Source: Bacteroidota bacterium (GTDB lineage: Bacteria > Bacteroidota > Bacteroidia > SXHM01). From it: a stretch of 64,000 nucleotides of DNA. Numbering within the stretch: position 1 is the first letter of the stretch; the number at the start of each line of letters is the position of its first letter. The stretch is from positions 20,488-84,487 of the forward strand of contig CANKAM010000011.1 of NCBI GenBank assembly GCA_947479755.1, written 5' to 3'. A model generated the notes under the pieces. It was not told the origin of the DNA. It searched no databases and was given only the letters and a program-made list of their open reading frames with translations. This document shows, in pieces, positions 3,970 to 56,822 of the stretch. The position numbers were made by a program, and so were the translations under genes.

Positions 3970-4628
3970 GGTTTATTATTTTTAAATAACGCCTTTTCTA
4001 AACCTTGATTTTGCACATTTTTTTGAAACAGATAATATACAAGCAACGCAAACAAAACACCAATCAGTGAACCAATAAATACATCGTCAAGAAAATGCTG
4101 ACTTAAATAAATCCGTGAAAAGCCTATGAGCGCTGCAGTAATTAAAAAAAGAAAACATGTATTCTTATTTTTTGCCATCAAAGCAAAGCAGGTAAAAACA
4201 CAAAAAGCTGTTGCCGTGTGTCCTGATGGCATGCTATTTTGCAGATAATTTTCAACTCCCGGAACAAGTCGCAATTCATAAATATTTTCAAAATATTTTT
4301 TAGGGCGAAGCGAAGCATCAAACACCTGTGTTTTCAGAATAAAAGTCAGTATTCCGGAAAACAGATTACTGAGCAATAAAATTAAAACAAAGCGATACTT
4401 AATGAAGAGTAAAATCAAGGCATACACAACCAGCATTCTTCCATCACCCAAATAAGTCAGGTATTTAAAAAATACATCAGCAAAAGGGTGATTTCTTTGA
4501 TTAATGGCAATGTGCAAACCTTCCTTATCAAAAAGCAGCAAAGCAAATGCACAGAAAAATAAAAAAGTTAAATACGGCAGAAAGAATGCCTTGTTGGCAG
4601 AAACGATTTTTAAAATATCGCGCAACAT
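3966..4628 (-). CDS. PAP2-family phosphatase (lipid phosphate or undecaprenyl-PP phosphatase type, LpxE/LpxF/PgpB-like)
   Basis: PAP2 motifs KxxxxxxRP-like (LRPKKYF), PSGH (MPSGHTATAF), and SRxxxxxHxxxD (SRIYLSQHFLDDV). Membrane protein. 4-nt overlap with the ArnT-like gene. Confidence 0.75.
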   Translation of the reverse strand: MLRDILKIVSANKAFFLPYLTFLFFCAFALLLFDKEGLHIAINQRNHPFADVFFKYLTYLGDGRMLVVYALILLFIKYRFVLILLLSNLFSGILTFILKTQVFDASLRPKKYFENIYELRLVPGVENYLQNSMPSGHTATAFCVFTCFALMAKNKNTCFLFLITAALIGFSRIYLSQHFLDDVFIGSLIGVLFALLVYYLFQKNVQNQGLEKALFKNNKP

Positions 4629-13718: not shown

Positions 13719-14276
13719 ATGATTCTTCCCATAGTAGCCTACGGTGACCCCGTTCTTAAAAAAGTAGCCGAAGAAATTGACAGTGATTATCCCGGTCTTG
13801 ATAAGCTGATTACTGATATGTTTGAGACCATGTACTCAAGCAAAGGCGTGGGATTAGCGGCACCGCAAATCAACAAATCCATTCGCCTGTTTATTATTGA
13901 CGCATCACCCTTTGCTGACGAATATCCTGAACTGGAAGGCTGGAAAAAAACATTTATCAATCCCCGCATTCTGGAAGAAGAAGGCGAAGAATGGGATTTT
14001 AACGAAGGTTGTCTGAGCATTCCCGGCATACGCGAAGATGTGGAACGCAAACCCGAATTAATTCTGGAATACGAAGACGAAAACTTTGAACTGCACGAAG
14101 AAAAATTCGATGGTATTATTGCCCGCGTTATCCAGCATGAATACGACCACCTGGAAGGTATCCTTTTTACCGACCATCTGAGCCCGCTGAAAAAGCGTTT
14201 ACTCAAAGGCAAGCTCAATGATATTTCAAAAGGCATTGTGGATGTAAATTACAAAATGAAATTTCCGAAGAGATAA
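13719..14276 (+). CDS. def: Peptide deformylase
   Basis: Motifs GVGLAAPQI, EGCLSIPG and HEYDHLEG, the three Fe-binding PDF motifs. Confidence 0.9.
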   Translation: MILPIVAYGDPVLKKVAEEIDSDYPGLDKLITDMFETMYSSKGVGLAAPQINKSIRLFIIDASPFADEYPELEGWKKTFINPRILEEEGEEWDFNEGCLSIPGIREDVERKPELILEYEDENFELHEEKFDGIIARVIQHEYDHLEGILFTDHLSPLKKRLLKGKLNDISKGIVDVNYKMKFPKR

Positions 14277-14282
14277 TTTAAT

Positions 14283-14344
14283 GTCACCCTGAGCATAGTC
14301 GAAGGGTAATAATAGTGCCTCGACTACGCTCGGCATGACAAAAC
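14283..14344. repeat. Long imperfect hairpin element with termini GTCACCCTGA...GCATGACAAAAC; 22-bp arms
   Basis: Arm 1 is GTCACCCTGAGCATAGTCGAAGG (14283-14305). Arm 2 is CCTCGACTACGCTCGGCATGAC (14318-14339), an imperfect reverse complement. Related copies at 40405-40472 and 47657-47679. Confidence 0.6.
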
Positions 14345-14357
14345 AAATAACTAACAA

Positions 14358-14897
14358 ATGAAACAATACCTACTACCTACTGCCTGCTGCCTGCTACTTA
14401 CTTTAGCCTCCTGCACCAGCGAACAGCAAAAACTACAACAGTCCATTGATGCAAAAGAAAAAGAACTCTATGGCGATTCAACCATGGTAATGGACTTTGC
14501 AAAAGCCAAAGACATGATTGCGTTGTATGCCGATTTTGTAAAAAAATACCCTGAGAACGAAAAAGCAGAAGATTATCTTTTCAAAGCAGGTGAGGTAAGC
14601 ATGGGTGCCATGCAAAGCAATGTTGCCATCAAATATTTTGAGCAGTACTACGAGAAATACCCAAAAGCCGACAAGGCGCCTTACAGTCTTTTTATGCAGG
14701 GCTTTATTTACGAAACGCAGGTAAAGAATATAGAAAAAGCAAAATGGTGTTACGAGAAATTTATCCTTGATTTTCCTACTCACAAATTAGCGGAAGATGC
14801 TAAATACTCCATTGCCAACCTTGGCAAAAGTGAGGAAGACTTGATACGCGAGTTTGAAGCAAAGCTGAAAGGCGATTCTGCCACCGCAGGCAAGTAA
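14358..14897 (+). CDS. Lipoprotein, TPR-like helical
   Basis: Lipobox LTLASC. Helical repeats rich in Y/K/E with YxxA patterns. Confidence 0.45.
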   Translation: MKQYLLPTACCLLLTLASCTSEQQKLQQSIDAKEKELYGDSTMVMDFAKAKDMIALYADFVKKYPENEKAEDYLFKAGEVSMGAMQSNVAIKYFEQYYEKYPKADKAPYSLFMQGFIYETQVKNIEKAKWCYEKFILDFPTHKLAEDAKYSIANLGKSEEDLIREFEAKLKGDSATAGK

Positions 14898-15056
14898 CGC
14901 TGAATTAAATCTGCTTTTAATATCCCTTAACTGACATTATTATAGTGTCGGCTTCTGATATTATTTCTCTGTCGAAAAATATTTTTCCAATCACCCAACC
15001 ATTTAGCTTTACAGCACGTTTACAATTTGATAACATTAATTTAACTTATACCCCGA

Positions 15057-16700
15057 ATGACAAAACTTTACGCCTCTCTACTTTTTCCTTTTGTTGCAGT
15101 AAGTGCTTTTGCACAATGGAATACTGACCCCTCTATTAACAACCTTATCTGCACACAACCGCAGGACCAGCAGGATGCGCGCATTGTAACCGATACCAAA
15201 GGTGGTGCTATTATCAGTTGGGTTGACTTCCGTAACGATGCCAATCAATTAGTAGCCGATATTTTTGCACAACGCGTAAACTCTGTTGGAACTAATATGT
15301 GGACCAACAACGGTGTAGCAGTTTGCACCAACAGTGCCGATCAGACAGCATCCGTATTAACCGAAGACGGAGTAGGTGGAACAATCATTACCTGGCAAGA
15401 CTGGCGCAGCGGAAACCGCGACATTTATGCACAACGCATTGATTCATCCGGAAATGTTTTGTGGACTGCAAATGGTGTTGATGTGGCAGTAAAAAACTTT
15501 CAGCAGCAGGGGCCTCGCATTATCAGTGATGGTGCAGAAGGAGCCATAATTGTTTGGGAAGATTCTATAAACGGAAACTGGGATATTTTTGCACAGCACA
15601 TCAATAGCAGTGGCGTTACACAATGGACAGCAGGGGGTGTTGCCGTTTGCACTTCATCACAAAATCAGGTTAATCCTAAAATAGTTGGAGATGCAACAGG
15701 CTCAACCTATATTGTATGGCAAGACAGACGCAACGGAAATGATTATGATGTTTATTGCCAGAAACTGAACTCATCAGGCGCAGTGCAATGGACCGCTAAT
15801 GGTGTTGCCGTTTGTACAGCAGGCAATTCACAGACAAATCCAAAAATGGTATTGGATAATTCGGGTGCAATAGTTATTGCTTGGCAACATTTCAATACAG
15901 GCGCGGGTTACGATGTATATGCTCAACGCTTAAACTCATCAGGTGCTGTGCAATGGACAGCAAACGGTATTGCGATTTGTGCACAGCCTAATAATCAGAG
16001 TGCCATTGATATGACAGCTGAAGATATTACTGACGGTGTTATTATTTCATGGAAAGATGCAAGAAATCCAACTAATGTAAATATCTATTGCCAGAAAGTT
16101 GATTTCAGCGGCAACGGAATTTGGACAACAAACGGTGTCTTGCTTTCAAATGCTTCACGCAACCAGATCAATCCTAATATTGTTGGCGATGGCAATGGCG
16201 GAGGAATTATTGTGTGGCAGGATTCTATTGCCGGAATATGGGATGTTTATGCACAGCGTATCTCTTCATTAGGCGCTGCTGTTTGGGCAAGCGGTGGAGT
16301 TGCCGTAGGTATTGCAGCAGATAACCAGACCGGACCTAAAAATGTAAGTGACGGAACTGGCGGTTCAATTTTCTCTTTTCAGGATAAACGTTCAGGAGAT
16401 TTTGATATTTATGCTTACAAGATTGCAGGAGATACTACCACCGGAATTGAGACACTTACTGAATTAAAGAATAACATTTCTGTCTTTCCAAATCCTTTCT
16501 CAGAAAACACAACCATTTATTTACCCGAAGGAAAACACAATCTGCGCCTGTATGATTTAGCAGGAAGAGAAATGCTGACTGTACTTAACATAAGTAATAG
16601 TAATTATGTATTTAAAAAAGGAAACCTTGCAAGCGGAACGTATTTACTTTCTGTTAGCTCAGAAAAAACTAATTATTCAAAACTAATTATCATTAACTAA
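15057..16700 (+). CDS. T9SS-secreted protein built of 8 tandem 54-aa repeats (possible beta-propeller) plus a C-terminal T9SS sorting domain
   Basis: Signal peptide. Eight repeats of consensus n.(Q/M)WT(A/T)NGVAVCT...Q..PKIV.D..GG.II.WQD.R.GN.DIYAQR(L/I)NSSG. C-terminal SVFPNPFSENTTIYL...KLIIIN is a T9SS type-A CTD. Confidence 0.6.
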   Translation: MTKLYASLLFPFVAVSAFAQWNTDPSINNLICTQPQDQQDARIVTDTKGGAIISWVDFRNDANQLVADIFAQRVNSVGTNMWTNNGVAVCTNSADQTASVLTEDGVGGTIITWQDWRSGNRDIYAQRIDSSGNVLWTANGVDVAVKNFQQQGPRIISDGAEGAIIVWEDSINGNWDIFAQHINSSGVTQWTAGGVAVCTSSQNQVNPKIVGDATGSTYIVWQDRRNGNDYDVYCQKLNSSGAVQWTANGVAVCTAGNSQTNPKMVLDNSGAIVIAWQHFNTGAGYDVYAQRLNSSGAVQWTANGIAICAQPNNQSAIDMTAEDITDGVIISWKDARNPTNVNIYCQKVDFSGNGIWTTNGVLLSNASRNQINPNIVGDGNGGGIIVWQDSIAGIWDVYAQRISSLGAAVWASGGVAVGIAADNQTGPKNVSDGTGGSIFSFQDKRSGDFDIYAYKIAGDTTTGIETLTELKNNISVFPNPFSENTTIYLPEGKHNLRLYDLAGREMLTVLNISNSNYVFKKGNLASGTYLLSVSSEKTNYSKLIIIN

Positions 16701-17086
16701 TGAAAAATAGCGGCTTACTTATTATTGGTTTAGTTCTCCTCTTTTCTTCTTGTACAAAAGAAGAGGGTGTTGGAGGAACATCAACCATTTCAGGAAAAGT
16801 ATATGCAAAAGAATTTTCTTCAGCCGGTAATCTCTTGGCTGAATATTATGCGCAGGAAGAGCGTGTGTATATTATTTATGGTGATGGCACAACGTATGAC
16901 AATGATTTCCGGACCAGCTACGATGGCTCTTACAAGTTTCAATACCTGAACAAAGGAACTTATAAAGTATTCTGTTATTCCAATTGCGACACTTGTGCAT
17001 CAGGGAGTATAGCCGTGATTAAGGAAGTTGAAATAACTTCCAATAACTCAACAGTAGAAGTAGAAGATATCGTTATCAGGAAATGA
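16700..17086 (+). CDS. Small lipoprotein, unknown function
   Basis: Lipobox LLFSSC. Start overlaps the upstream stop (TAATG). Its stop overlaps the downstream start (ATGA). Confidence 0.45.
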   Translation: MKNSGLLIIGLVLLFSSCTKEEGVGGTSTISGKVYAKEFSSAGNLLAEYYAQEERVYIIYGDGTTYDNDFRTSYDGSYKFQYLNKGTYKVFCYSNCDTCASGSIAVIKEVEITSNNSTVEVEDIVIRK

Positions 17087-17877
17087 GCGAGAACACCACG
17101 GCAAACCTTATAGTTCCTGCTTTACAAACCTTTCGCCCTATTACATTGAGCGAGATGGATAACGTGCAGTTGCTTAACCGCATGGATACAAAGTTTGTTT
17201 TTCCGGTTGACAAGCTCTTGCCGTTTCTTGAAAAAATAAAAGACGGATACCGCCTGCTGGAAACCAATCCGCTGCGTTACTCAGACTACAACTCACTTTA
17301 TTATGACACACCGGATTCAAAACTATACTTCACGCATCACCGTGGAAAGTCAGGGCGCTATAAAATTCGTTTCCGCAGTTACAACGACACAAAATTATTT
17401 TTCCTGGAAATAAAACACAAGAACAACAAAGGACGAACCGATAAGTCAAGAAAAAGAAAAACCGAAATAGAACAAACACTTTCTGCCGAATCGATTGAAT
17501 ACATCAACCGCAAAACAAATCTTGATGCTACACAATTAGAAGCAAAACTGCAGGTTGAATTTTCACGCCTCACCTTTGTAAACAACGAAGAAAACGAACG
17601 CGCTACTATTGATTTCAATTTGCGTTTCAGTCATAACGGAAAGCAGGTTGGCCTTCCCGGCATAGTGGTAGCAGAAATAAAACAAAGTAAATTTTCGGTA
17701 AAGAGCGGAGCAATATCAGCGCTCAGAGAATTAAAGATACGCGAAGACAACATGAGTAAATACTGCATTGGCACAGCGTTGATATATTCAGATATCAAAC
17801 AAAATAATTTCAAACAAAAAATATACACCATAAATAAACTTCAGAACCATGGAATTTTTAGGAACCAAGCTGCTTAA
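17083..17877 (+). CDS. VTC-domain protein (polyphosphate-polymerase-like catalytic domain, CYTH/triphosphate-tunnel fold)
   Basis: Basic tunnel-like pattern RYSDYNSLYYDTPDSKLYFTHHRGKSGRYKIRFRSYNDTKLFFLEIKHKNNKGRTDKSRKRK, resembling the Vtc4 catalytic core (R/K ladder around FLEIK). No TM segments. ATGA overlap with the upstream gene. Confidence 0.65.
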   Translation: MSENTTANLIVPALQTFRPITLSEMDNVQLLNRMDTKFVFPVDKLLPFLEKIKDGYRLLETNPLRYSDYNSLYYDTPDSKLYFTHHRGKSGRYKIRFRSYNDTKLFFLEIKHKNNKGRTDKSRKRKTEIEQTLSAESIEYINRKTNLDATQLEAKLQVEFSRLTFVNNEENERATIDFNLRFSHNGKQVGLPGIVVAEIKQSKFSVKSGAISALRELKIREDNMSKYCIGTALIYSDIKQNNFKQKIYTINKLQNHGIFRNQAA

Positions 17878-18499
17878 CGACAACGATTTTTTAGAATTGC
17901 TTGTCAGATTTTTCTTAAATATTACCGTGATGTTGGTAATAGTGCGTCTTCTCTATTATCCTAATCAACGCAGAAAAGACTATTTGTTTACCTACGTTAT
18001 TTTTAACGTGCTTATTTTCCTCATCTGCTTTTTGCTTAGCAGTGTAAAACTGGAACTTGGTTTTGCGTTTGGTTTATTTGCTGTGTTCGGCATTTTGCGT
18101 TACCGCACAGAAGCTGTGCCTATTAAGGAAATGACCTATCTGTTTATAGTAATAGGCATTGCCGTAATCAATTCACTGAGTAATAAAAAAATAAGCTGGG
18201 CCGAACTTGCCTTTACCAATGCTGCAATCCTGGGTGCCACTTATGCACTTGAAAAAATGTGGCTGCTGCGCCACGAAACACAGAAATTGGTGATCTATGA
18301 TAATATTGAACTTATAAAACCCGAACACAGAGCGAAATTGATTGAAGACCTGAATAAACGCACAGGACTTACCATTACCCGCACCCGCCTGGAGAAAATT
18401 GACTTTCTGCGTGATGTTGCTTTTCTCTACATCTACTATTTTGAAGATAAAACTCCGGGCTATAATAACCCGGCTGACGACAGCGATGATGACGATTAG
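17849..18499 (+). CDS. DUF4956-like integral membrane protein
   Basis: 4-5 TM helices (VMLVIVRLLYYP, FTYVIFNVLIFLICFLL, GFAFGLFAVFGIL, YLFIVIGIAVINSL) and an acidic DDSDDDD C-terminus. Overlaps the VTC gene by 29 nt. Family assignment is from memory of this gene neighbourhood and is unverified. Confidence 0.5.
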   Translation: MEFLGTKLLNDNDFLELLVRFFLNITVMLVIVRLLYYPNQRRKDYLFTYVIFNVLIFLICFLLSSVKLELGFAFGLFAVFGILRYRTEAVPIKEMTYLFIVIGIAVINSLSNKKISWAELAFTNAAILGATYALEKMWLLRHETQKLVIYDNIELIKPEHRAKLIEDLNKRTGLTITRTRLEKIDFLRDVAFLYIYYFEDKTPGYNNPADDSDDDD

Positions 18500-19232
18500 A
18501 AACAGTTCTTTCATCTTTATTTTTCTGTTGGGTGCGCTTACTTCTTTTGCACAGACAAACGATTTTCAAACCTGGGCATGGGTTACATTGAAAACCGATA
18601 TTTCAAAAAAGTTCAGCGCAAGTGTTCAGTGTCAGTTACGGATGAAGGACAATTCAACGCGACCCGGCACCGTTTTTTTTGAGCCCGACCTTGGATTTAA
18701 AGTAAATAAATACCTGAAATTAGGTGTAGGATATCGTTTCTCTATGCGTTACAGTTCAGACAACATTAACACCACTGCGCACCGCTATAACATTGATGCC
18801 GAAGGCAGAAAAAAATTCGGCAAACTAACACTCAAGCTACGCACCCGTTTTCAGAAAGGTTTTACTGATTTAGTTTACAACGAAAATCGCGAACCCTACT
18901 CCTACCCTGCTTACAACCGCAACAAACTATCAATGGAATATGAAGTAAACAAACGCTTCAGTCCTTATGCAGAGTTTGAATTATTTCTACCGCTTAATAA
19001 CCCGCGCCAGCGCAATTTTGACCGCTACCGTGCAACCATCGGCTCTTCATTTGATTTAAAAAACCGCAACTCAATTGATTGTTTTTTTCGTGTGCAACAG
19101 GAGTTGAACACTGCCAATCCCAAAACAGATTTCATCATTGGTCTTGGCTATGCTTATGATGTAAAACTGAGTAAGAAGAAAAAGAAAGACAAGGATAAGA
19201 AAGAGGAAAAGCCTGATTCTAAAAAGAAATAA
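18486..19232 (+). CDS. Predicted outer-membrane beta-barrel protein (DUF2490-like), K/D-rich C-terminal tail
   Basis: Signal peptide MMTIRNSSFIFIFLLGALTSFAQ from the ATG at 18486. The ORF-track upstream extension overlaps DUF4956. Alternating hydrophobic beta-strand pattern (LGVGYRFSMRY, FDLKNRNSIDCFFRV, FIIGLGYAYDV). Confidence 0.45.
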   Translation: MMTIRNSSFIFIFLLGALTSFAQTNDFQTWAWVTLKTDISKKFSASVQCQLRMKDNSTRPGTVFFEPDLGFKVNKYLKLGVGYRFSMRYSSDNINTTAHRYNIDAEGRKKFGKLTLKLRTRFQKGFTDLVYNENREPYSYPAYNRNKLSMEYEVNKRFSPYAEFELFLPLNNPRQRNFDRYRATIGSSFDLKNRNSIDCFFRVQQELNTANPKTDFIIGLGYAYDVKLSKKKKKDKDKKEEKPDSKKK

Positions 19233-19238
19233 GATAGG

Positions 19239-21275
19239 ATGAAAAAGGCTATCATTTTAGTTGTTGTGCTTATCTCATTCAGCACGCTGCACATATCTGC
19301 ACAAACCTTTACAGGCAGCACCGGAACCATACTTGACGATGGCAGCGACAATTATTATCCTTTAACAGTAAGCGGTGTTGTTCCTGCAACGATGGATGCC
19401 AATTACGGACTGGAAACGGTTTGCATCAACCTTACCCATACCTGGGATGACGACATTGTTATTTCATTGATAGCACCTGACGGCAGTGAGTTTTTGCTGG
19501 CCGGCAGACTGGGCGGTGATGGCGACAACTATACCGATGCTTGCTTTAACTACAGTGCAGCCCAATACATTTATGAAGTGGGCGCACCCTTTACCGGAAC
19601 CTACAAACCGCAAGGAACCATGTCGGTAGTAAACAACGGACAAAATCCAAATGGCCTCTGGAAACTGCATATTTTAGATACCTATCCCTTTGCCGATACA
19701 GGCGATTTACTGGGTTGGTCGCTTACGTTTGGCAATAGTCCTGCAAGGCCTTTTCCTTTCAGTTCAACGCAACTGCCATTGGTATTAATACAAACAAGCG
19801 GTGGATTAATTCATGACGAGCCTAAGATTATGGCCGACATGAAGATTATCAGAAACGCCAACGGTGCGCCAAACTTCACAACCGATTTGCCAAACATTTA
19901 TAACGGCAAAATAGGAATTGAGCAGCGTGGAAACAGCTCGGGCGGAATGCCTAAAAAATCATACAACTTTGAAACACGCAACGCTGACAGCAGCAATCTT
20001 GATGTTTCGTTGCTTGATATGCCAATAGAAAACGACTGGACGTTGATTGCCAACTATTCTGACAAAACGTTGTTACGCAATTATTACAGCTACCGTCTTT
20101 TCCGTAAAATGGGACACTGGGCTCCGCGCATGGAATTTTGCGAGGTACTTATTGACGGAGAGTATCAGGGCATTTACCTACTGGGCGAGCGGATAAAGAA
20201 AGATTCCAGCCGTGTTGACATTGCAAGCAACACTATTGCAGACACCACTGGAGCTGAACTTACAGGCGGCTACATTTTTAAAGTGGATTGGATTGACGGG
20301 GGCGATGTGACCTGGCAATCTGAATTTCCTGATTTTAACAATGTAAATGCAATCACTTATATTCTTGATTATCCAAAGCCCGAAAATGTACAGCCTCAGC
20401 AGCTTGATTACATTAAGGCGTATGTTGACAGCTTTGAACTTGCCATGAATTCTCCTGATTTCAGCGATACCATTACCGGCTTCCGCAAATACATCAGTCA
20501 GCAGAGTTTTATTGATTACATCATTTTGGATGAGTTTACCAAAAACGTTGATGGCTACCGTTTGAGCACCTTTTTCTATAAAGAAAAGAACGGAAAAATA
20601 AAAGCCGGCCCTCCCTGGGATTATGACTTATCGTGGGGCAATGCCGACTACATGGACGGATGGTATCCGGGTGGGTGGGACTATGAAGCACAAACCACCT
20701 ATACCGACCAATGCCCATTCTGGTGGAGCCGCTTTTTCGAAGATGAATTATTTATGAACCGCCTGCGTTGCCGTTGGGAAGAGTTACGCCAAACGGCTTT
20801 AAACCCCGACACCATTAAAAGCGAGATTGATTCGCTGGCTGAAATACTGAGCGGGGCTACCGACCGGAACTTTACCAAATGGCCTATACTTGGGGTGTAT
20901 GTATGGCCCAACCCGCAACCTATTCCACAAGATTATCAGGGCGAAATTGATAAACTGAAAGACTGGACAGGCTTCCGAATTACGTGGCTGGACGAGCACT
21001 GGACAGGCACCTGCGATATTGTTACTGCAGTTGCTGAAAACGGTGATGAAAATAAAGCTGGTGTATATCCAAATCCTACTGACAATATTCTGAACTTCAG
21101 AGAAAAAAACGTGACTGAAATTATGGTCTGTAACTTAACAGGGCAAGCTGTTTTGAAAAAGAAAGTTAATAATAATGAACGTAAAGTCTACCTTGAAAAT
21201 CTTGCTTCAGGAAATTATATAATTCAGTTAATTTCTGAGGACAGAATTGTAAGATATAAGTTTGTTAAGCAATAG
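19239..21275 (+). CDS. Secreted CotH-family atypical kinase with an N-terminal P-domain-like beta-sandwich and a C-terminal T9SS sorting domain
   Basis: Signal peptide. P-domain-like region VCINLTHTWDDDIVISLIAPDGSEFLL...GLWKLHILDTYPFADTGDLLGWSLTF. CotH core KKSYNFETRN...KTLLRNYYSYRLFRKMGHWAPRMEFCEVLIDGEYQGIYLLGERIKKD...WDYDLSWGN. T9SS CTD GVYPNPTDNILNF...YKFVKQ. Confidence 0.75.
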   Translation: MKKAIILVVVLISFSTLHISAQTFTGSTGTILDDGSDNYYPLTVSGVVPATMDANYGLETVCINLTHTWDDDIVISLIAPDGSEFLLAGRLGGDGDNYTDACFNYSAAQYIYEVGAPFTGTYKPQGTMSVVNNGQNPNGLWKLHILDTYPFADTGDLLGWSLTFGNSPARPFPFSSTQLPLVLIQTSGGLIHDEPKIMADMKIIRNANGAPNFTTDLPNIYNGKIGIEQRGNSSGGMPKKSYNFETRNADSSNLDVSLLDMPIENDWTLIANYSDKTLLRNYYSYRLFRKMGHWAPRMEFCEVLIDGEYQGIYLLGERIKKDSSRVDIASNTIADTTGAELTGGYIFKVDWIDGGDVTWQSEFPDFNNVNAITYILDYPKPENVQPQQLDYIKAYVDSFELAMNSPDFSDTITGFRKYISQQSFIDYIILDEFTKNVDGYRLSTFFYKEKNGKIKAGPPWDYDLSWGNADYMDGWYPGGWDYEAQTTYTDQCPFWWSRFFEDELFMNRLRCRWEELRQTALNPDTIKSEIDSLAEILSGATDRNFTKWPILGVYVWPNPQPIPQDYQGEIDKLKDWTGFRITWLDEHWTGTCDIVTAVAENGDENKAGVYPNPTDNILNFREKNVTEIMVCNLTGQAVLKKKVNNNERKVYLENLASGNYIIQLISEDRIVRYKFVKQ

Positions 21276-21277
21276 AC

Positions 21278-22375
21278 TTACACATTAAACCTGAAGTGCA
21301 TCACATCCCCATCCCCTACTACATACTCCTTACCTTCAATGGTAAGTTTTCCGTTTTCGCGGGCAGCGGCCTCTGAGCCAAAGGTTACAAAGTCGTTGTA
21401 TTTAATAGTCTCGGCACGGATAAATCCTTTCTCAAAATCGCTGTGGATAACACCGGCAGCCTGCGGGGCAGTCATGCCTTTGGTAATGGTCCATGCACGC
21501 ACTTCTTTTACCCCTGCAGTGAAATACGTTGAAAGATTAAGCAGGCGGTAAGCCGCTTTAATCAATTTATTTACTCCGGGTTCGCTTAAACCTAAGTCAG
21601 CAAGAAATTCCTTGCGGTCGTCAGGGCTATCCATTGATGCAATTTCTGATTCAATAGCAGCAGAAATCAGGAGCACTTCGGCACCTTCGTTCTTCACTGC
21701 TTCTTTTACTACCTCTGAATGTTTATTTCCGTTCACTACCGAAGCCTCATCCACATTGCAAACGTAAAGCATCGGCTTGTCGGTAAGCAAATGAATGTCG
21801 TCAATAACAAAACGGTCTTTACCCTCAACAGGTGCGCTGCGGGCAGATTTACCTTGCTCTAAGTGGTTCTTGAAGATGCTTAATAACTCGTATTCTTTCT
21901 TGGCATCTTTATCACCCGTTTTTGCAGAACGCTCCAGTTTTTGCATTTTTTTCTCCACCGATTCCAAGTCTTTCAATTGCAACTCAAAATCGATAGTTTC
22001 TTTATCACGGATAGGATTTACAGAGCCATCAACGTGAACAACATTTCCATCGTCAAAGCAGCGCAGTACATGAATAATGGCGTTGGTATCTCTGATGTTA
22101 GCAAGGAATTTATTTCCCAGTCCTTCACCTTTACTCGCTCCTTTCACCAGACCTGCAATATCTACAATCTCAATAACGGTAGGCACTACACGCTCAGGTT
22201 TTACAAACTCACTCAGCTTGTTGAGCCGCTCGTCAGGAACGGTAATCACTCCCACATTCGGCTCAATGGTGCAGAACGGAAAATTAGCCGCCTGCGCCTT
22301 GGCATTTGATAAACAGTTAAACAAGGTTGATTTACCCACGTTTGGCAAACCCACTATTCCGCATTGTAATCCCAT
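21278..22375 (-). CDS. ychF: Ribosome-binding ATPase YchF
   Basis: MGLQCGIVGLPNVGKSTLFN (G1), DIAGLV (G3), and the C-terminal TGS domain text are all characteristic. 365 aa. Confidence 0.9.
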   Translation of the reverse strand: MGLQCGIVGLPNVGKSTLFNCLSNAKAQAANFPFCTIEPNVGVITVPDERLNKLSEFVKPERVVPTVIEIVDIAGLVKGASKGEGLGNKFLANIRDTNAIIHVLRCFDDGNVVHVDGSVNPIRDKETIDFELQLKDLESVEKKMQKLERSAKTGDKDAKKEYELLSIFKNHLEQGKSARSAPVEGKDRFVIDDIHLLTDKPMLYVCNVDEASVVNGNKHSEVVKEAVKNEGAEVLLISAAIESEIASMDSPDDRKEFLADLGLSEPGVNKLIKAAYRLLNLSTYFTAGVKEVRAWTITKGMTAPQAAGVIHSDFEKGFIRAETIKYNDFVTFGSEAAARENGKLTIEGKEYVVGDGDVMHFRFNV

Positions 22376-22396
22376 AGTTTATTTTTAAAAAGCGCG

Positions 22397-22404
22397 CAAA
22401 GATA
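22397..22404 (-). promoter_or_regulatory. Candidate -7 box (TATCTTTG on the minus strand) for ychF
   Basis: Plus-strand caaagata is the reverse complement of the TAnnTTTG consensus, about 20 nt upstream of the ychF start. Confidence 0.25.
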
Positions 22405-22471
22405 TATGAATTTTAACGCCCTAATTCTTTTCAAAAATTATTAACACACCAATTCTCACCTATCAATTAAA

Positions 22472-22479
22472 CTACTTTT
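22472..22479 (+). promoter_or_regulatory. Candidate -7 box TACTTTTG for the transketolase operon
   Basis: TAnnTTTG consensus 27 nt upstream of the ATG at 22507. Confidence 0.25.
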
Positions 22480-22506
22480 GAAACCTGAACAAATCCAACC
22501 CATCTT

Positions 22507-23352
22507 ATGCCAACTACAGACGAACTAAAACGTATTGCTTCTCAAACCAGACGCGACATTCTGCGCATGGTTCATGCCGTTAACTCAGGTCATCCAGGTG
22601 GCTCACTCGGTTGTACTGATTTTTTTGTAGCCCTTTATCATGAAGTTATGAAGCCTGATGCCAAAAACTTTACGATGGATGGCATTGGCGAAGATCTTTT
22701 CTTTCTTTCAAACGGGCATATTTCGGCTGTTTGGTATAGCGTTCTGGCGCATTACGGCTATTTCCCTGTAAGTGAACTGGCAACATTTCGTAAACTGAAT
22801 ACCCGTTTGCAGGGACACCCTACAACCCACGAAGGTTTACCGGGTGTGCGCATTGCTTCGGGTTCATTGGGGCAGGGACTTTCAGTAGGTATTGGTGCTG
22901 CGCTTGCTAAAAAACTGAACAACGATAAATCACTTATTTATACCCTGCATGGTGACGGTGAAATGCAGGAAGGACAAATTTGGGAAGCAGCTATGTACGC
23001 AGCTGCCAACAAAGTGGACAATATTATTGCTACAATTGACGTTAACGGAAGGCAGATAGATGGAGATACCGATCAGGTACTTAATATGGGCAGCCTTGAA
23101 GCAAAATGGCAGGCTTTTGGTTGGGATGTGATGCACATGAACGGAAATGATATGCAGGAAGTAGTAAATGGTTTGAACAAAGCCAAAACATTAACCGGCA
23201 AAGGGAAACCAGTTATGATTTTAATGAAAACCGAAATGGGAGCCGGAGTTGATTTCATGATGGGAAGTCATGAATGGCATGGTATAGCACCTAACGATGC
23301 TCAATTGGAAAAAGCTTTAGGTCAATTAGAACAAACACTTGGAGATTACTAA
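22507..23352 (+). CDS. Transketolase, N-terminal (TPP-binding) subunit of a split enzyme
   Basis: GHPGGSLG TPP motif, HGDGEMQEGQIWEA. 281 aa, the typical split-tkt N-subunit size. Confidence 0.85.
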   Translation: MPTTDELKRIASQTRRDILRMVHAVNSGHPGGSLGCTDFFVALYHEVMKPDAKNFTMDGIGEDLFFLSNGHISAVWYSVLAHYGYFPVSELATFRKLNTRLQGHPTTHEGLPGVRIASGSLGQGLSVGIGAALAKKLNNDKSLIYTLHGDGEMQEGQIWEAAMYAAANKVDNIIATIDVNGRQIDGDTDQVLNMGSLEAKWQAFGWDVMHMNGNDMQEVVNGLNKAKTLTGKGKPVMILMKTEMGAGVDFMMGSHEWHGIAPNDAQLEKALGQLEQTLGDY

Positions 23353-23392
23353 TAGAATAATGAATATCGAACAAGGAATATTGAATTTTGAA

Positions 23393-24787
23393 ATGAAGAA
23401 AATACTTCGCCATTCGTTATTCTTTGTTCTGTATTCACTGTTTTCCTTTTCTTCTTCGGCTCAGGAACCACAAAAAAAGCCTCAGCCACTTACCCGCATT
23501 TTATTTGTATTTGATGGTTCGCAAAGCATGTTCGGTCAATGGCAAAGCGGGATGAAAATTGATATTGCAAAAAAATTATTGGGCGAGTTACTTGACAGTT
23601 TGCAAACTGTGCCAAATATTGAGTTGGCGCTGCGTTGCTATGGGCACCAAAGCCAATATATATCAAGTTCACAGCGCGATTGCAAAGACACCAAACTGGA
23701 AGTCCCTTTTTATAAAAACAATATTCCTGCAATAAAAAACAAGATTAATTCCATAACCCCAAAAGGAACAACACCTATCGCCTATTCACTGGAACAAACC
23801 GGTAATGATTTTCCAAAATGTGATGACTGCCGCAACATCATTATCCTTATCACCGATGGCATAGAAGAATGCGATGGCGATCCTTGTGCAGTTTCTGCAG
23901 CCTTGCAGAAAAATGGAATTGTTCTTAAACCGTTTGTAATCGGTGTTGGTTTAGATGAAGACATACTGAAACAGTTTGATTGCGTTGGTAATTACTACGA
24001 TGCCAGCAACGAGAAAACATTTAAAACCGTTCTGAACGTAGTAATCTCACAAGCATTGAACAATACTACTGCACAAGTAAATTTACTTGACATTTACAGC
24101 AAGCCTACAGAAACCAACGTGAACATGACGTTCTATGATAGTTTTTCGGGCAAAATGAAATACAATTTCATTCACACTATTAATAACCGCGGCAACCCTG
24201 ACACCCTGATTATTGACCCCCTGCCTACTTATAAAATTGTAGTTCACACTATTCCCGAAGTTGTAAAAGACAGCATAAAACTTACTCCCGGAAAACACAC
24301 CATCATAGCCATTGATGCACCGCAAGGCGATTTAGAATTAAAAGTAAACGGCACAAGTGATTACAAAACTTTACAATGTATTATCCGCAAACAAGGCGAA
24401 ATGCAGACACTGAATATTCAGGAATTTAATCAGAAAGAGAAATATATTATTGGCAAATATGATGTGGAAATTTTGTGTCTCCCACGAATGTATGTATACA
24501 ATGTAGATATCTCGCAAAGCAAGACGACAACAGTTGCTATCCCACAACCGGGAAGAGCCAACATACTTAAAAACACTGCCGGATACGGAGGTGTTTATCT
24601 TGAAGGCAACAATAAACTTACCTTAGTATATAATCTGAAACCTGAAAATATTCAGGAAAACTTAGTGCTTCAACCCGGAAAATACCGCGCTGTTTTCCGT
24701 CCAAAAAACTCAAAAGAATCAGAATACACACTTGAAAAATCATTTACCATACTTTCGGGAAGTTCGGAAGTTGTAAAACTTTACTAA
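23393..24787 (+). CDS. Secreted von Willebrand factor type A (VWA) domain protein
   Basis: Signal peptide MKKILRHSLFFVLYSLFSFSSSAQ from the internal ATG at 23393; the ORF-track start at 23339 is TTG. MIDAS motif DGSQSM, then ...TPIAYSL...ITDGIE. About 300-aa beta-rich C-terminal region. Confidence 0.7.
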   Translation: MKKILRHSLFFVLYSLFSFSSSAQEPQKKPQPLTRILFVFDGSQSMFGQWQSGMKIDIAKKLLGELLDSLQTVPNIELALRCYGHQSQYISSSQRDCKDTKLEVPFYKNNIPAIKNKINSITPKGTTPIAYSLEQTGNDFPKCDDCRNIIILITDGIEECDGDPCAVSAALQKNGIVLKPFVIGVGLDEDILKQFDCVGNYYDASNEKTFKTVLNVVISQALNNTTAQVNLLDIYSKPTETNVNMTFYDSFSGKMKYNFIHTINNRGNPDTLIIDPLPTYKIVVHTIPEVVKDSIKLTPGKHTIIAIDAPQGDLELKVNGTSDYKTLQCIIRKQGEMQTLNIQEFNQKEKYIIGKYDVEILCLPRMYVYNVDISQSKTTTVAIPQPGRANILKNTAGYGGVYLEGNNKLTLVYNLKPENIQENLVLQPGKYRAVFRPKNSKESEYTLEKSFTILSGSSEVVKLY

Positions 24788-24788
24788 C

Positions 24789-25772
24789 ATGGAAAAAACA
24801 CTACCTATGAGCATTGAAATAGTATCGGAAGATAAAGACACACGCAGCGGATTTGGTGCGGGTTTACATGAACTCGGAAAGAAAAACAAAAACGTAGTTG
24901 CGCTGTGTGCCGACCTTACCGGTTCACTGAAAATGGATGCCTTCAAAAAAGAATTCCCTGACCGCTTTTTTCAAGTTGGAATTGCAGAAGCCAATATGAT
25001 TGGTATTGCAGCGGGATTAACCATTGGAGGAAAAATTCCGTTCACCGGAACATTTGCAAACTTTTCTACAGGAAGAGTTTATGACCAAATACGTCAATCA
25101 GTTGCTTACTCAGACAAAAATGTAAAAATCTGTGCTTCACATGCAGGCTTAACATTGGGTGAAGACGGAGCTACTCACCAAATTCTAGAAGACATCGGCA
25201 TGATGAAAATGCTGCCGGGAATGAGTGTTATCAATCCTTGTGATTATAACCAGACAAAAGATGCAACACTTGCTATTGCCGATATTCACGGGCCTGTTTA
25301 CCTGCGCTTCGGAAGACCGAAAGTTCCAAATTTTACCGGAGGTCAATACCCGTTTGTGTTTGGCAAAGCCCTGAAATTCTTTGACGGTACAGATGTAACC
25401 ATCTTTGCAACCGGCCATATGGTATGGAAAGCGCTGGAAGCAAAAAAGATTTTAGAAGAAAAAGGAATCAGCGCTGAAATAATAAACATACACACGATTA
25501 AACCATTAGATGTGGAGGCTGTCATAGCATCAGTCAGGAAAACAAAAAGTGTGGTAACAGCAGAAGAACATCAGATGAACGGAGGACTTGGCGACAGCAT
25601 CGCTCAGGTTCTTGCGCAGCATTTTCCGGCTCCCATTGAAATGGTAGCGGTGAACGACAGTTTTGGCGAAAGCGGAACTCCGGAACAATTGCTCAAAAAA
25701 TACGGACTCGATACTCCCAATATAGTGCAGGCGGCAGAAAAAGTAATAGCGAGAAAAAACGCGGGAAATTAG
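24789..25772 (+). CDS. Transketolase, C-terminal (pyrimidine-binding) subunit
   Basis: FFQVGIAEANMIGIAAGL and EDGATHQILEDIGMM motifs of the transketolase Pyr and C-terminal domains. 327 aa. Confidence 0.85.
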   Translation: MEKTLPMSIEIVSEDKDTRSGFGAGLHELGKKNKNVVALCADLTGSLKMDAFKKEFPDRFFQVGIAEANMIGIAAGLTIGGKIPFTGTFANFSTGRVYDQIRQSVAYSDKNVKICASHAGLTLGEDGATHQILEDIGMMKMLPGMSVINPCDYNQTKDATLAIADIHGPVYLRFGRPKVPNFTGGQYPFVFGKALKFFDGTDVTIFATGHMVWKALEAKKILEEKGISAEIINIHTIKPLDVEAVIASVRKTKSVVTAEEHQMNGGLGDSIAQVLAQHFPAPIEMVAVNDSFGESGTPEQLLKKYGLDTPNIVQAAEKVIARKNAGN

Positions 25773-49497: not shown

Positions 49498-50075
49498 CCC
49501 GCCTTCTTAACAAACTTGGTCAGTATTACAATCGTCTGACCATTCACTCTGCCTTCAATCTGCTCAGCATTATCCCAAACGAGATTAATGTTGCGAACCG
49601 ATGTTCCCCGCTTAGCTGCAAATATTGAACCTTTGATATCTAAATCTTTTATGATTACAACGGTATCACCATTTTGCAATACAGAACCATTGCTGTCAAT
49701 GTGTTTTACTTTATCATCGTTGTTAGCAGCTTCATCCTGTCCGGTCTGTGCCCATTTCAGGGTTTCTTCATCCAGATATATTGTGTCCAGCAAGTCTTGT
49801 GTCCAACCTTGTGAGCGCAGGCGGGTAAGCATTCGCCATGCCATTACCTGCACGGCAGGAACTGTGCTCCACATACTATCATTCAGGCAACGCCAGTGAT
49901 TAGCTTCTTCTGTTCCCGGATTATTAATTTGTGATGTACAGGTTTCGCAAATCAGGATACTTTTATCTGCACTTTCGTCTGAAGGAGCAACAGCAAAAAC
50001 TGTTAATCCATTTGTGTTTCCACATAATTCACAGCTTGATGCGCTGCGTTCTTTCAATTCATTTTCCACGCTCAT
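49494..50075 (-). CDS. phnA: PhnA/YjdC-family zinc-ribbon protein with an N-terminal extension
   Basis: CELCGN...CETC zinc ribbon. C-terminal GDTVVIIKDLDIKGSIFAAKRGTSVRNINLV...GRVNGQTIVILTKFVKK aligns to E. coli PhnA. Confidence 0.75.
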   Translation of the reverse strand: MSVENELKERSASSCELCGNTNGLTVFAVAPSDESADKSILICETCTSQINNPGTEEANHWRCLNDSMWSTVPAVQVMAWRMLTRLRSQGWTQDLLDTIYLDEETLKWAQTGQDEAANNDDKVKHIDSNGSVLQNGDTVVIIKDLDIKGSIFAAKRGTSVRNINLVWDNAEQIEGRVNGQTIVILTKFVKKAG

Positions 50076-55392: not shown

Positions 55393-55395
55393 TGT

Positions 55396-56178: not shown

Positions 56179-56240
56179 TTTTTTTATTATTTAGTTTTTC
56201 AACTCAATGCAAAAGTGGTAAATTAGAATGAAGTTCATTA

Positions 56241-56759: not shown

Positions 56760-56822
56760 TAGGAGGTTGTTATTTTGGTGTAAAAGTAGCTTTTTGAAAT
56801 ACTGATCTGAATAGTCAGGATG

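Follow-up and report, generated by a model that had tools for sequence, protein, structure and literature searches.

A 64,000-nucleotide stretch of contig CANKAM010000011.1 from a Bacteroidota bacterium (the window) carries six + strand open reading frames between positions 15057 and 21275 (Table 1), and public gene calls reproduce all six identically. The sequence at each junction reveals how tightly these genes are packed. ORF1 and ORF2 meet in a TAATG (stop at 16698-16700, ATG at 16700-16702) and ORF2 and ORF3 in an ATGA (17083-17086). ORF3 and ORF4 overlap by 29 nt (ATG at 17849, TAA at 17875-17877), ORF4 and ORF5 overlap by 14 nt (ATG at 18486, TAG at 18497-18499), and a gap of 6 nt (19233-19238) separates ORF5 from ORF6. 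The longest frame for gene 5 opens at TTG 18399, but we set its start at ATG 18486, near a second ATG at 18489; starting there gives the protein a signal peptide and agrees with the public gene calls.

The first-pass annotation had reported these overlaps and gaps exactly, and its reading of the genes as a single operon is borne out both by the overlaps and by the preservation of gene order in relatives. We conclude that 15057-21275 forms a single conserved operon with ORF3 and ORF4 as its core. The overlaps also suggest that the six genes are translationally coupled. The operon starts 159 nt beyond a TPR-like gene and ends 2 nt short of a convergent ychF-like GTPase gene; promoter and terminator scans of the operon gave no signal above chance.

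Table 1. Genes and predicted features of the operon and its neighbors.
Feature	Residues	Nucleotides	Strand	Description	HMM match, bits (cut-off)
TPR-like gene		14358-14897		upstream neighbor	
ORF1		15057-16700	+	547 aa, predicted secreted T9SS cargo; signal peptide and type-A CTD	
ORF1 repeats	~21-463	15117-16445	+	about eight repeats of ~54 aa each	TIGR04275 63.9 (85), under cut-off
ORF1 type-A T9SS C-terminal domain	476-547	16482-16697	+		Por_Secre_tail 34.7 (27); TIGR04183 38.5
ORF2		16700-17086	+	128 aa, small lipoprotein, lipobox LFSSC/TKEEGVGGTSTISGKVY	
ORF3		17083-17877	+	264 aa, stand-alone VTC-type triphosphate-tunnel enzyme	PF09359 (VTC) 95.1 (23)
ORF4		17849-18499	+	216 aa, polytopic inner-membrane protein	PF16316 (DUF4956) 186 (30.6)
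ORF5		18486-19232	+	248 aa, DUF2490 protein, signal peptide ...TSFAQ/T	PF10677 (DUF2490) 98.4 (29.8)
ORF5 Lys-rich tail	20 aa	19170-19229	+	lineage-specific	
ORF6		19239-21275	+	678 aa, predicted secreted, T9SS-anchored CotH-family kinase; signal peptide	
ORF6 P-domain	60-164	19416-19730	+		P_proprotein 39.1 (21)
ORF6 CotH domain	227-584	19917-20990	+		CotH 206.5 (23.8)
ORF6 T9SS CTD	609-678	21063-21272	+		Por_Secre_tail 43 (27); TIGR04183 52.6
ychF-like GTPase gene		21278-22375	-	convergent neighbor	

Predicted products of the six genes

All families assigned earlier (T9SS CTD, VTC, DUF4956, DUF2490, P-domain and CotH) pass curated HMM thresholds. The proposed locations likewise agree with our predictions from sequence: the enzyme in the cytoplasm, a polytopic protein in the inner membrane, a protein likely to reside in the outer membrane, and proteins exported by the T9SS.

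ORF3 has the features expected of a cytoplasmic polyphosphate-polymerase-like enzyme, and its sequence contains no signal peptide, TM helix, hydrophobic segment or SPX domain. When its AlphaFold model (pLDDT 89.2) is compared with the PDB by Foldseek, the 12 best matches are the yeast VTC complex, Vtc4 or Vtc2 (E values of 3e-12 to 1e-10), while generic CYTH/TTM hydrolases occupy ranks 13-36, below the yeast VTC subunits. Residues R33/K37, R96/R98 and K111 align to Vtc4 R196/K200, R264/R266 and K281, in an active-site alignment that is confident for the N-terminal half alone, and are invariant in 30 homologues. The Vtc4 catalytic residues K200, R264, R266 and K281 thus have conserved equivalents. 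Triphosphatases and cyclases are TTM enzymes too, and we know of no biochemical activity for any bacterial VTC-domain protein.

The membrane partner ORF4 has four to five helices, evident as hydrophobic peaks in its sequence, with many invariant charged residues, followed by a C-terminal beta-alpha-beta-beta domain of ~55 aa and an acidic DDDD tail. Mean column identity in DUF4956 is 59% and exceeds the conservation of VTC. The invariant positions (R42-K43-D44, K67, R84-Y-R86-T, E94, K114, E119 and H142-E143) include charged intramembrane residues, suggesting a role beyond that of an anchor. The C-terminal domain bears a weak likeness to ACT/NikR-type ligand-sensing domains and has also been called ACT-like by others (PMC12345266). 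A low-confidence model of ORF4 (pLDDT 66) matched no known channel or transporter and had no detectable likeness to solved structures, VTC subunits included.

ORF5 is probably an outer-membrane beta-barrel, since its sequence has no hydrophobic helix and the C-terminus of its homologues is aromatic and beta-signal-like. It is strongly basic (47 K+R vs 26 D+E). The lipoprotein ORF2, probably a beta-sandwich, is acidic (family median net charge -7) and matches no Pfam family above cut-off, with only weak SdrD_B/SpaA prealbumin-like hints; the N-terminus of its family is conserved as SC-K-K-E-x-G-E-G-G-T-S.

The remaining two products carry T9SS sorting domains. The signal peptide of ORF1 ends in ...SAFAQ/W, and its repeat region probably forms a beta-propeller, although no PDB relative was found by sequence. 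In an alignment with Bacillus cereus CotH, D438 (N-V-D-G) and D461 (P-W-D-Y-D) of ORF6 fall on the aspartates of that protein, and mutation of the equivalent D228 and D251 of B. subtilis CotH inactivates the kinase (PMC7821199). All 18 of the 18 operon-linked CotH proteins compared retain both catalytic aspartates. Direct binding of polyphosphate by CotH and ORF1 is not favored, given the strongly acidic character of these proteins.

A conserved core with variable surface proteins

VTC followed by DUF4956 is a near-invariant core. DUF4956 adjoins VTC in 77 of the 80 loci compared, in most of them directly after VTC on the same strand and often with overlapping genes, and this adjacency spans Bacteroidota, Chloroflexota, Planctomycetota and Chlorobiota. 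Bacteroidota extend the core with the small lipoprotein, the basic DUF2490 protein and at least one T9SS-exported surface protein. Relatives with a VTC identity of 69-95% share the gene order of the window operon, and distant lineages have it in modular form. The lipoprotein adjoins VTC in 36/80 loci and DUF2490 is present in 35/80, usually directly after DUF4956. Hence lipoprotein-VTC-DUF4956-DUF2490 is the standard Bacteroidota layout rather than an unusually complete copy with DUF2490 as an extra, and the lipoprotein, which had been regarded as incidental, belongs to the conserved set.

The T9SS cargo gene may lie at either end of the operon. It usually encodes CotH, although ORF1-type proteins, a GSDH-PA14-CTD protein or a CTD protein of unknown type can take equivalent positions. 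The ORF1 family lies upstream of lipoprotein-VTC in eight loci, among them L038 and L047, which are distant. CotH had been taken for a fixed member, but it differs cleanly in presence or absence among close relatives. The gene is absent from L006, L007 and L010; it is a clean indel relative to the first two, and L007 has a ~21-nt tandem array at this spot. One near relative instead has a different CotH subtype where ORF1 would be. These two subtypes, found at different operon ends in near relatives, align at 27% identity over 99 residues only, which argues for independent recruitment. CotH occurs within the flanks of 19/58 VTC-anchored loci, and VTC within those of 10/33 CotH-anchored metagenome loci. 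The VTC-CotH link therefore holds from both sides, far above a chance linkage of ~0.5%, a figure that is our own rough estimate rather than a computed one.

Relationship to known systems

The closest described system, and the only one with genetic data, is the set of accessory genes (with or without DUF4832) of Gram-positive pel loci, where cotH, a polyphosphate-polymerase gene and DUF4956 are conserved (PMC7112168). The same three contiguous families are present there, and CotH is again predicted to be secreted. In Streptococcus intermedius the triad genes SIR_1592-1594 were deleted one by one with modest phenotypes, and loss of the DUF4956 or CotH gene changed matrix-dependent aggregation (PMC12345266). 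The triad is therefore not undescribed, as had been claimed; the families and the operon of the first-pass annotation stand, whereas its views on novelty and, as noted above, on DUF2490, CotH and the lipoprotein do not. That study reports finding no triad synteny beyond pel loci (PMC12345266); the window and about 40 further loci compared here show that it does occur beyond them. The window differs in lacking pel genes nearby and in the varying position and presence of CotH. DUF4832 was not seen, and the DUF2490 protein, the lipoprotein, the T9SS CTD on CotH and the ORF1-type propeller are diderm-specific additions.

The yeast/protist VTC complex (PDB 3G3Q, 7YTJ, 8I6V) shares PF09359 with ORF3 and is its best structural match. 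In both systems a catalytic domain has its own membrane partner; in yeast the Vtc4 TTM domain goes with the membrane subunits Vtc1/2/3. This pairing in yeast couples polyphosphate synthesis to translocation. Unlike Vtc4, ORF3 lacks an SPX domain and is a separate protein not fused to TM helices, and the bacterial system is predicted to span the envelope, whereas yeast VTC is vacuolar. ORF6 shares PF08757 and both catalytic aspartates with the Bacillus spore-coat Ser/Thr kinase CotH (PDB 5JD9/5JDA), but overall similarity to 5JD9 is weak (E 1.6e-5). Bacillus CotH acts in the mother cell, whereas ORF6 belongs to a non-sporulating phylum, has an N-terminal P-domain and is predicted to undergo Sec and T9SS export and surface anchoring. 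PPK1 and PPK2 would share with ORF3 a product, polyphosphate from NTP, without homology. These kinases are soluble or peripheral enzymes that form granules in the cytoplasm; the annotated parts of the window showed no ppk gene.

Possible functions of the operon

We tentatively favor a reading in which the inner membrane is the site of polyphosphate synthesis and the polymer crosses the envelope to the surface, where it is used or acted on. ORF3 would dock to ORF4 from the cytoplasm and polymerize the gamma-phosphate of NTP, with chain passage through ORF4 coupled to synthesis; translocation by DUF4956 is proposed purely by analogy with the yeast complex. The basic DUF2490 protein and the lipoprotein might then carry the polyanion across the periplasm and outer membrane to a T9SS-anchored partner that uses, binds or modifies it. 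Where CotH is present, the polymer could act as a scaffold or donate phosphoryl groups for the phosphorylation of surface or matrix components in a setting poor in ATP. The proteins meant to touch the polyanion are consistently basic, with median net charges of +16 for VTC, +13 for DUF2490 and +5.5 for an extra periplasmic protein (c8), which favors polyphosphate. The adjacency, frequent overlap and conservation of DUF4956 argue for physical or functional coupling to VTC, and the predicted locations of ORF1-ORF6 fit an envelope-spanning logic. Besides the points made above on TTM activities, the ORF3 alignment, the ORF4 model and the acidic CotH and ORF1 proteins, two further findings stand against this mechanism, namely the dispensability of CotH in the window's own clade and the S. 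intermedius VTC-gene deletion, which had no reported phenotype while neighboring deletions did (PMC12345266).

A somewhat unlikely alternative is that VTC-DUF4956 works on the cytoplasmic side of the membrane, where it makes or hydrolyzes a short polyphosphate or triphosphate to buffer phosphate or energy or to signal, nothing being exported and the barrel, lipoprotein and T9SS proteins being merely co-regulated, for example in a phosphate- or stress-responsive regulon. Many loci indeed consist of VTC-DUF4956 alone among housekeeping genes, with neither barrel nor CotH, so the core needs neither the export route nor the kinase. The ACT/NikR-like domain, the hydrolases among TTM folds and a ROK-family glucokinase directly upstream of VTC in L013, and possibly L015, point the same way; the ROK family includes polyphosphate-glucokinases. 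However, a purely intracellular role leaves unaccounted for a basic outer-membrane-type protein and a lipoprotein fixed in 35-36/80 loci and the repeated recruitment of secreted CotH, and the charged intramembrane residues of DUF4956 suggest more than an anchor. We also regard as unlikely a module for matrix or exopolysaccharide modification, in which CotH would be a FAM20B-like kinase of glycans or matrix proteins and VTC-DUF4956 would serve regulation or supply, polyphosphate not being the end product. In streptococci, clostridia and bifidobacteria the triad directly adjoins pelDEADAFG (PMC7112168), Pel level and aggregation are altered on deleting the DUF4956 and CotH homologues (PMC12345266), a GT2 glycosyltransferase and a response regulator lie just upstream of VTC in an L024-type Bacteroidota lineage, and operon CotH proteins bear carbohydrate-associated accessory domains (CHB_HEX_C, Fn3_assoc, LTD and P-domain). 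Yet within 10 kb of the window operon there are neither pel nor other genes for polysaccharide synthesis, most of the 80 loci lack them too, and the conserved polymerase-type active site is left unaccounted for.

The clean indel, the tandem array in L007 and the exchange of cargo at equivalent positions would also fit CotH and ORF1 as passengers, swappable at a permissive insertion site and without functional tie to VTC-DUF4956, so that the triad itself would be an artefact of that site. This is improbable, given that the reciprocal association exceeds the rough chance estimate and crosses phyla without T9SS (Chloroflexota, Planctomycetota and Gram-positives; PMC7112168), and that the two divergent CotH subtypes entered the operon in separate events. 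Chance adjacency of unrelated genes is vanishingly improbable: the genes overlap, and an order conserved across many lineages refutes it. Since the triad is published for Gram-positive pel loci, the window operon represents a diderm/T9SS variant of a known cluster; on the export reading that we favor, it would be a candidate extracellular polyphosphate/phosphorylation system.

Six overlapping genes and their products

The six-gene finding is real and correctly annotated. When the sequence was read base by base, every junction described in the first-pass annotation was borne out; three public assemblies call exactly the same six genes, and all of the proposed family assignments hold in Pfam and NCBIfam searches. 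The longest ORF for ORF5 begins at a TTG, and the downstream ATG, which yields a signal peptide, is the start in the gene calls of all three assemblies. The window proteins are 100% identical to those of an uncultured Bacteroidota MAG (GCA_947478945.1). A 159-nt gap precedes the operon, and a convergent ychF-like GTPase gene lies 2 nt downstream. Scans of positions 14300-22500 returned 21 sigma-70 promoter matches versus 18.9 in shuffled controls and 8 intrinsic-terminator matches versus 8.0, and the Bacteroidota -7 motif TAnnTTTG was neither enriched nor present in the upstream gap. Neither scan is informative on the transcription unit.

Coordinates of features in the window and, where a locus is named, in related loci
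Feature	Coordinates	Strand	Basis
ORF1, T9SS repeat protein	15057-16700	+	ORF listing
ORF1/ORF2 junction, TAATG	16698-16702	+	read base by base
ORF2, small lipoprotein	16700-17086	+	ORF listing
ORF2/ORF3 junction, ATGA	17083-17086	+	read base by base
ORF3, VTC enzyme	17083-17877	+	ORF listing
ORF3/ORF4 junction, 29-nt overlap	ATG 17849, TAA 17875-17877	+	read base by base
ORF4, DUF4956 membrane protein	17849-18499	+	ORF listing
ORF4/ORF5 junction, 14-nt overlap	ATG 18486, TAG 18497-18499	+	read base by base
ORF5, DUF2490 protein	18399 (TTG)/18486 (ATG)-19232	+	ORF listing
ORF5 Lys-rich tail	19170-19229	+	
ORF5/ORF6 junction, 6-nt gap	19233-19238	+	read base by base
ORF6, P-domain, CotH and CTD	19239-21275	+	ORF listing
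Divergent PMT_2 pair and PAP2 phosphatase	692-4628		
Split transketolase	22507-25772		
Secreted VWA-domain gene	23339-24787		
YjdM/PhnA	49494-50075		
PhoD-family phosphatase	50085-51146	-	
Run of T9SS-CTD cargo genes	53665-61629		
Multicopper oxidase in this run	53665-55392		
Counterpart of window 19239-21270 in L006	L006:5560-5648		
Counterpart of window 19239-21270 in L007	L007:8483-8856		
Tandem array in L007	L007:8578-8796		
CotH-CTD gene in L009	L009:6006-7582		
PorV/PorU in L011	L011:10535-15597		
ROK-family glucokinase in L013	L013:7034-7993		
VTC module and upstream genes in L024	L024:1417-7872		

ORF3 matches the VTC family (PF09359, 95.1 bits versus a cut-off of 23) over profile positions 1-234 of 235, and NCBI names proteins of this type ‘polyphosphate polymerase domain-containing protein’. 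When its structural model (pLDDT 89.2, pTM 0.86) was compared with the PDB by Foldseek, ranks 1-12 were all the yeast VTC complex, Vtc4 or Vtc2 (E 3e-12 to 1e-10), with E. coli YgiF and the CYTH hydrolases and cyclases below them; the model predicts a triphosphate-tunnel beta-barrel closest to the VTC subunits. With ORF3 as a single sequence, a PDB search gave no relevant match; only the family profile reached Vtc2 and Vtc4, and weakly. In a profile alignment to 3G3Q, the chain from which the Vtc4 numbering offset was derived, R33-x-x-T-K37-F aligns with Vtc4 R196-Q-T-T-K200-Y, R96-x-R98-x-Y with R264-L-R266-W-Y, and E109-x-K111 with E279-R-K281. This places K37, R96, R98 and K111 at the basic tunnel and catalytic residues K200, R264, R266 and K281 of Vtc4. 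These motifs are invariant in 30 homologues (39-78% identity), as are R162, E172-R173, E198-K200 and S225-K226-Y227 in the C-terminal half. This second half gave no significant profile alignment to Vtc4 (domain 2), whose active-site residues there we take to be Y359, R361, R373, E426, S457 and K458. As far as the significant alignment reaches, the polymerase-type catalytic residues of ORF3 are intact. The eukaryotic architecture of SPX, TTM and C-terminal TM is absent, ORF3 being a 264-aa single domain with no hydrophobic segment and no export signal. Clustered at 50% identity, the stand-alone VTC family numbers 2,437 clusters at E<=1e-30 and 4,354 at E<=1e-10. Among the 2,437 representatives, the top 150 are all about 230-320 aa and, as a weak test, include no VTC-DUF4956 fusion.

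ORF4 matches DUF4956 (186 bits); its hydrophobicity profile has four strong peaks, and its low-confidence AlphaFold model has five helices. A DUF4956 homologue has been described as an MgtC-like membrane domain with an ACT domain (PMC12345266), a description that was not reproduced with Pfam for ORF4, which has no MgtC or ACT match even at E<=10. Foldseek returned only non-significant ACT/NikR-like matches for its C-terminal domain (best E 0.08), which are not interpretable because the model is of low confidence and all E values are at least 0.08. A DUF4956 profile search against the PDB gave no match. Mean column identity is 59% for DUF4956 versus 47% for VTC, and invariant R, K, E and H residues lie within or beside the DUF4956 helices.

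The other products are secreted or envelope proteins. ORF1, ORF5 and ORF6 have signal peptides, judged by eye from the sequence for ORF1 and ORF6. T9SS C-terminal sorting domains (CTDs) were found at residues 476-547 of ORF1 (38.5 bits for TIGR04183, 34.7 for PF18962) and 609-678 of ORF6 (52.6 and 43 bits). Combining a terminal CTD with a signal peptide, both would be type-A T9SS cargo, and many further CTD proteins are encoded in the window. ORF1 has beta-propeller-like repeats, seven clear units of ~54 aa and one degenerate first unit, that score under the NCBIfam cut-off. ORF2 has a classic lipobox and no family match above cut-off in Pfam or NCBIfam. ORF5 matches PF10677 (DUF2490, 98.4 bits), shows no TM-helix peak and has a weak match to DUF481 (E 0.061). 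ORF5 homologues end in Y-x-F/Y/L, which resembles an aromatic beta-signal, and DUF2490 is presumed to be an outer-membrane beta-barrel. Sequence searches found no relatives of known structure for ORF1, ORF2 or ORF5.

ORF6 matches the full CotH profile (PF08757, positions 1-322, 206.5 bits versus a cut-off of 23.8) and a P-domain (39 bits). Residues D438 (NVDG) and D461 (PWDYD) align with the aspartates of NFDG and PWDYD in B. cereus CotH, and their equivalents are invariant in 18 of 18 full-length CotH domains adjoining VTC genes. Mutants of B. subtilis CotH at D228 and D251 are kinase inactive (PMC7821199). By these alignments, the kinase-type catalytic residues of the operon CotH are intact.

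A conserved operon with a VTC-DUF4956 core

A VTC-alignment scan of one genome per species yielded 80 loci, mostly from Bacteroidota (Flavobacteriales, Crocinitomicaceae, Bacteroidales and Chitinophagales) with some from Chloroflexota, Planctomycetota and Chlorobiota. Annotation of the 80 loci drew on tblastn and ORF clustering, together with home-made HMMs and Pfam searches of the cluster representatives. DUF4956 adjoins VTC in 77 of the 80, usually directly downstream on the same strand. An ORF2-type lipoprotein, with the conserved N-terminus C-K-K-E-x-G-E-G-G-T-S-x-I-x-G-K-V, occurs in 36, DUF2490 in 35, and an extra secreted protein of ~190 aa, termed c8 and encoded between lipoprotein and VTC, in 18. 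A first CotH HMM that included the CTD and accessory domains over-called (32 loci); with a domain-only HMM, a true CotH domain is present in 22 loci, or 23 with the truncated L005. Of the VTC loci, 58 have 3 kb or more of flank, and CotH is found in 19 of these; 28 of the 58 also carry DUF2490, and 15 of the 28 have CotH. The commonest order is CotH(CTD)-lipoprotein-(c8)-VTC-DUF4956-DUF2490; Chloroflexota loci show VTC-DUF4956-CotH, and a Planctomycetota locus carries a 1,281-aa CotH upstream of VTC. Many Crocinitomicaceae loci hold the bare core pair, VTC and DUF4956, between cytidine deaminase or pyruvate-dehydrogenase genes. The operon is a conserved one, with a VTC-DUF4956 core and envelope proteins for each compartment. 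Chance adjacency of the six genes was rejected, being ruled out by synteny.

CotH is facultative in this operon. Two VTC-anchored loci from close relatives in the window's own clade, L006 and L007, match the window nucleotides over 14001-19210 and again from about 21271, and the intervening 2.06-kb CotH gene is absent from both. In its place L006 has ~90 bp. In L007 the intergenic space between DUF2490 and ychF is filled by some 10 tandem copies of a ~21-nt unit (AAACTGTACTTAAGTCACC); positions 14000-22500 of the window contain no tandem repeats. The CotH gene is likewise absent from L010. In L009, with 86% VTC identity, a gene for a 497-aa CotH-CTD protein replaces that of ORF1, and its product can be aligned with the window CotH across 99 residues, with no more than 27% identity. 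At least two recruitments of CotH have occurred, each from its own subfamily and each at a different end of the operon. The ORF1 family occupies the partner position in 8 loci, including two lineages at only 42% VTC identity, and other T9SS cargo found there are a GSDH-PA14-CTD protein and a CTD protein without an assigned family.

Metagenomes were scanned with a narrower, upstream-type CotH alignment (the broad alignment lacks a sufficiently conserved stretch), giving 80 loci. Of these, 33 extend 3 kb or more to each side; VTC is present in 10 of the 33, also DUF4956 in 8 and also DUF2490 in 6, where by our own rough estimate chance would give ~0.5% for a single-copy gene within ±10 kb. The order CotH-lipoprotein-(c8)-VTC-DUF4956-DUF2490 was seen again among these loci. 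The association with secreted CotH is reciprocal and cross-phylum. Four CotH-anchored loci (L107, L151, L155 and L159) have VTC-like genes near CotH with no DUF4956 detectable by HMM, and may represent a different sub-architecture.

Beyond its beta-signal-like motif, ORF5 carries a 20-aa Lys-rich tail (SKKKKKDKDKKEEKPDSKKK). Such tails are confined to DUF2490 proteins of the window's clade and of the VTC-anchored loci L016 and L023, and lineages lacking them encode c8, a separate protein with a Lys-rich N-terminus. Since the substrates of B. subtilis CotH are Ser/Lys/Arg-rich repeats (PMC7821199), one may speculate that the Lys-rich segments of DUF2490 and c8 are CotH targets or bind polyphosphate (polyP). 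Across the loci, median net charge is +16 for VTC, +13 for DUF2490 (on ~200 mature residues), +5.5 for c8, -7 for the lipoprotein, -16 for the ORF1 family and -48 for upstream-type CotH, with -1 for all ORFs. Together with the invariant charged residues of DUF4956, this pattern fits polyanion handling, as circumstantial evidence.

Several other neighbours were observed. In L013 just 2 nt separate VTC from the end of an upstream ROK-family glucokinase gene, and in L015 a 311-aa ORF lies in the same upstream position. Polyphosphate glucokinases are members of the ROK family, so the L013 neighbour may hint at polyP as the product. In the L024 lineage (also L022, L027 and L040), genes for a large GT2 glycosyltransferase, a response regulator and a GSDH-PA14-Ig-CTD T9SS protein precede VTC, and those for the lipoprotein, c8, DUF4956 and DUF2490 converge on VTC from the other strand. 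Genes for PorV and PorU (C25 peptidase) are located immediately downstream of the module on the opposite strand in L011 and about eight other Flavobacteriales loci, which may be inherited synteny and not a functional link; several of the bare Crocinitomicaceae pairs also have PorV/PorU downstream. Elsewhere in the window, transketolase is split into a gene for its N-terminal half and one for its C-terminal half, on either side of a secreted VWA-domain gene, an arrangement kept in L004, L006 and L009. A PhoD-family phosphatase gene adjoins YjdM/PhnA, which puts phosphate-scavenging genes ~30 kb from the operon, and a PhoD with a T9SS CTD is encoded just past the window end, beyond a run of T9SS-CTD cargo genes that includes a multicopper oxidase. 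Two divergent PMT_2 (ArnT-like) glycosyltransferase genes and a PAP2 phosphatase gene, with a GT2 gene just beyond the window start, look like a lipid- or glycan-modification cluster.

Known relatives and a possible polyphosphate pathway

In streptococci and clostridia, pelDEADAFG is directly adjoined by a conserved set of accessory genes for CotH, poly-phosphate polymerase, DUF4956 and DUF4832, of which bifidobacteria have a variant (PMC7112168). Deletion of SIR_1592 (DUF4956) or SIR_1594 (CotH) from S. intermedius altered Pel levels and, in one medium, cut aggregation by over 50%. For the VTC homologue, SIR_1593, there was no reported phenotype, and the authors did not find CotH-VTC-DUF4956 synteny outside pel loci (PMC12345266). 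VTC-‘tubulin-like’ pairs lie beside CotH in C. perfringens NELoc-2 (PMC2879425), and DUF4956 and DUF2490 genes are adjacent in B. thetaiotaomicron BT3498-99 (PMC10434189). Our literature searches turned up neither an activity for any bacterial VTC protein nor an account of the Bacteroidota layout, and nothing relevant for locus tags BT3497-3500. The Nguyen 2016 CotH paper may already list VTC and DUF4956 as CotH neighbours. Like the Gram-positive pel-accessory cluster, the operon unites ORF3, ORF4 and ORF6, with only ORF5 between; unlike it, the operon has no pel gene among its Pfam-annotated neighbours up to 10 kb away on either side. The operon is a diderm, T9SS-linked variant of this published, unexplained cluster and no new kind of system. 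New here are the conserved lipoprotein and basic DUF2490, the modular exchange of T9SS partners and the finding of the cluster away from pel.

In textbooks, bacterial polyP is the work of PPK1/PPK2 chemistry, and VTC polymerase is treated as eukaryotic. Our leading reading of the operon is that polyP would be made by ORF3 at ORF4, cross the inner membrane by analogy with yeast VTC, and be conducted outward by ORF5 and ORF2 to the surface, where the T9SS partners would act with it. A more far-reaching proposal, to which we attach a low probability, is that bacteria have a third polyP route, eukaryote-type and vectorial, in which VTC and DUF4956 synthesise polyP and extrude it across the inner membrane, a basic DUF2490 barrel and the lipoprotein of Bacteroidota carry it to the surface, and the exported polymer is the phosphoryl donor, obligate co-substrate or scaffold for secreted CotH. 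Such a use of polyP by CotH would explain how a kinase outside the cell can act despite scarce ATP.

Bare core pairs are among the weakest links of the export reading, as are the fold and function of DUF4956, the presumed barrel of DUF2490 and the lack of a reported streptococcal VTC-mutant phenotype. Bare pairs would suit a main rival in which the pair has an intracellular or regulatory role; the lipoprotein and DUF2490 genes found with the pair elsewhere would suit export. Another main rival, matrix or polysaccharide modification by the cluster as in pel loci, has the altered Pel levels of S. intermedius on its side and the pel-free surroundings of the operon against it. CotH could also be a passenger, as its facultative presence would allow; its recruitment twice at opposite ends argues for a functional tie and against hitch-hiking.

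Stand-alone bacterial VTC proteins form a large family, almost always beside DUF4956, repeatedly joined to secreted CotH and, in diderms, also to outer-membrane components. The comparative map resolves this into testable units, namely the core pair, the Bacteroidota envelope add-ons and a swappable T9SS partner. Should the module make polyP and export it, the polyP synthases of bacteria would be joined by a new one, and polyP export would have its first dedicated route; a function would also be suggested for many secreted CotH proteins, including those in the pel biofilm loci of pathogenic streptococci and clostridia. The far-reaching proposal, if true, would define a surface polyphosphate/phosphorylation system common to Gram-positives, Bacteroidota, Chloroflexota and Planctomycetota. 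The operon is a good experimental lead to a possible eukaryote-type, vectorial polyP pathway in bacteria.
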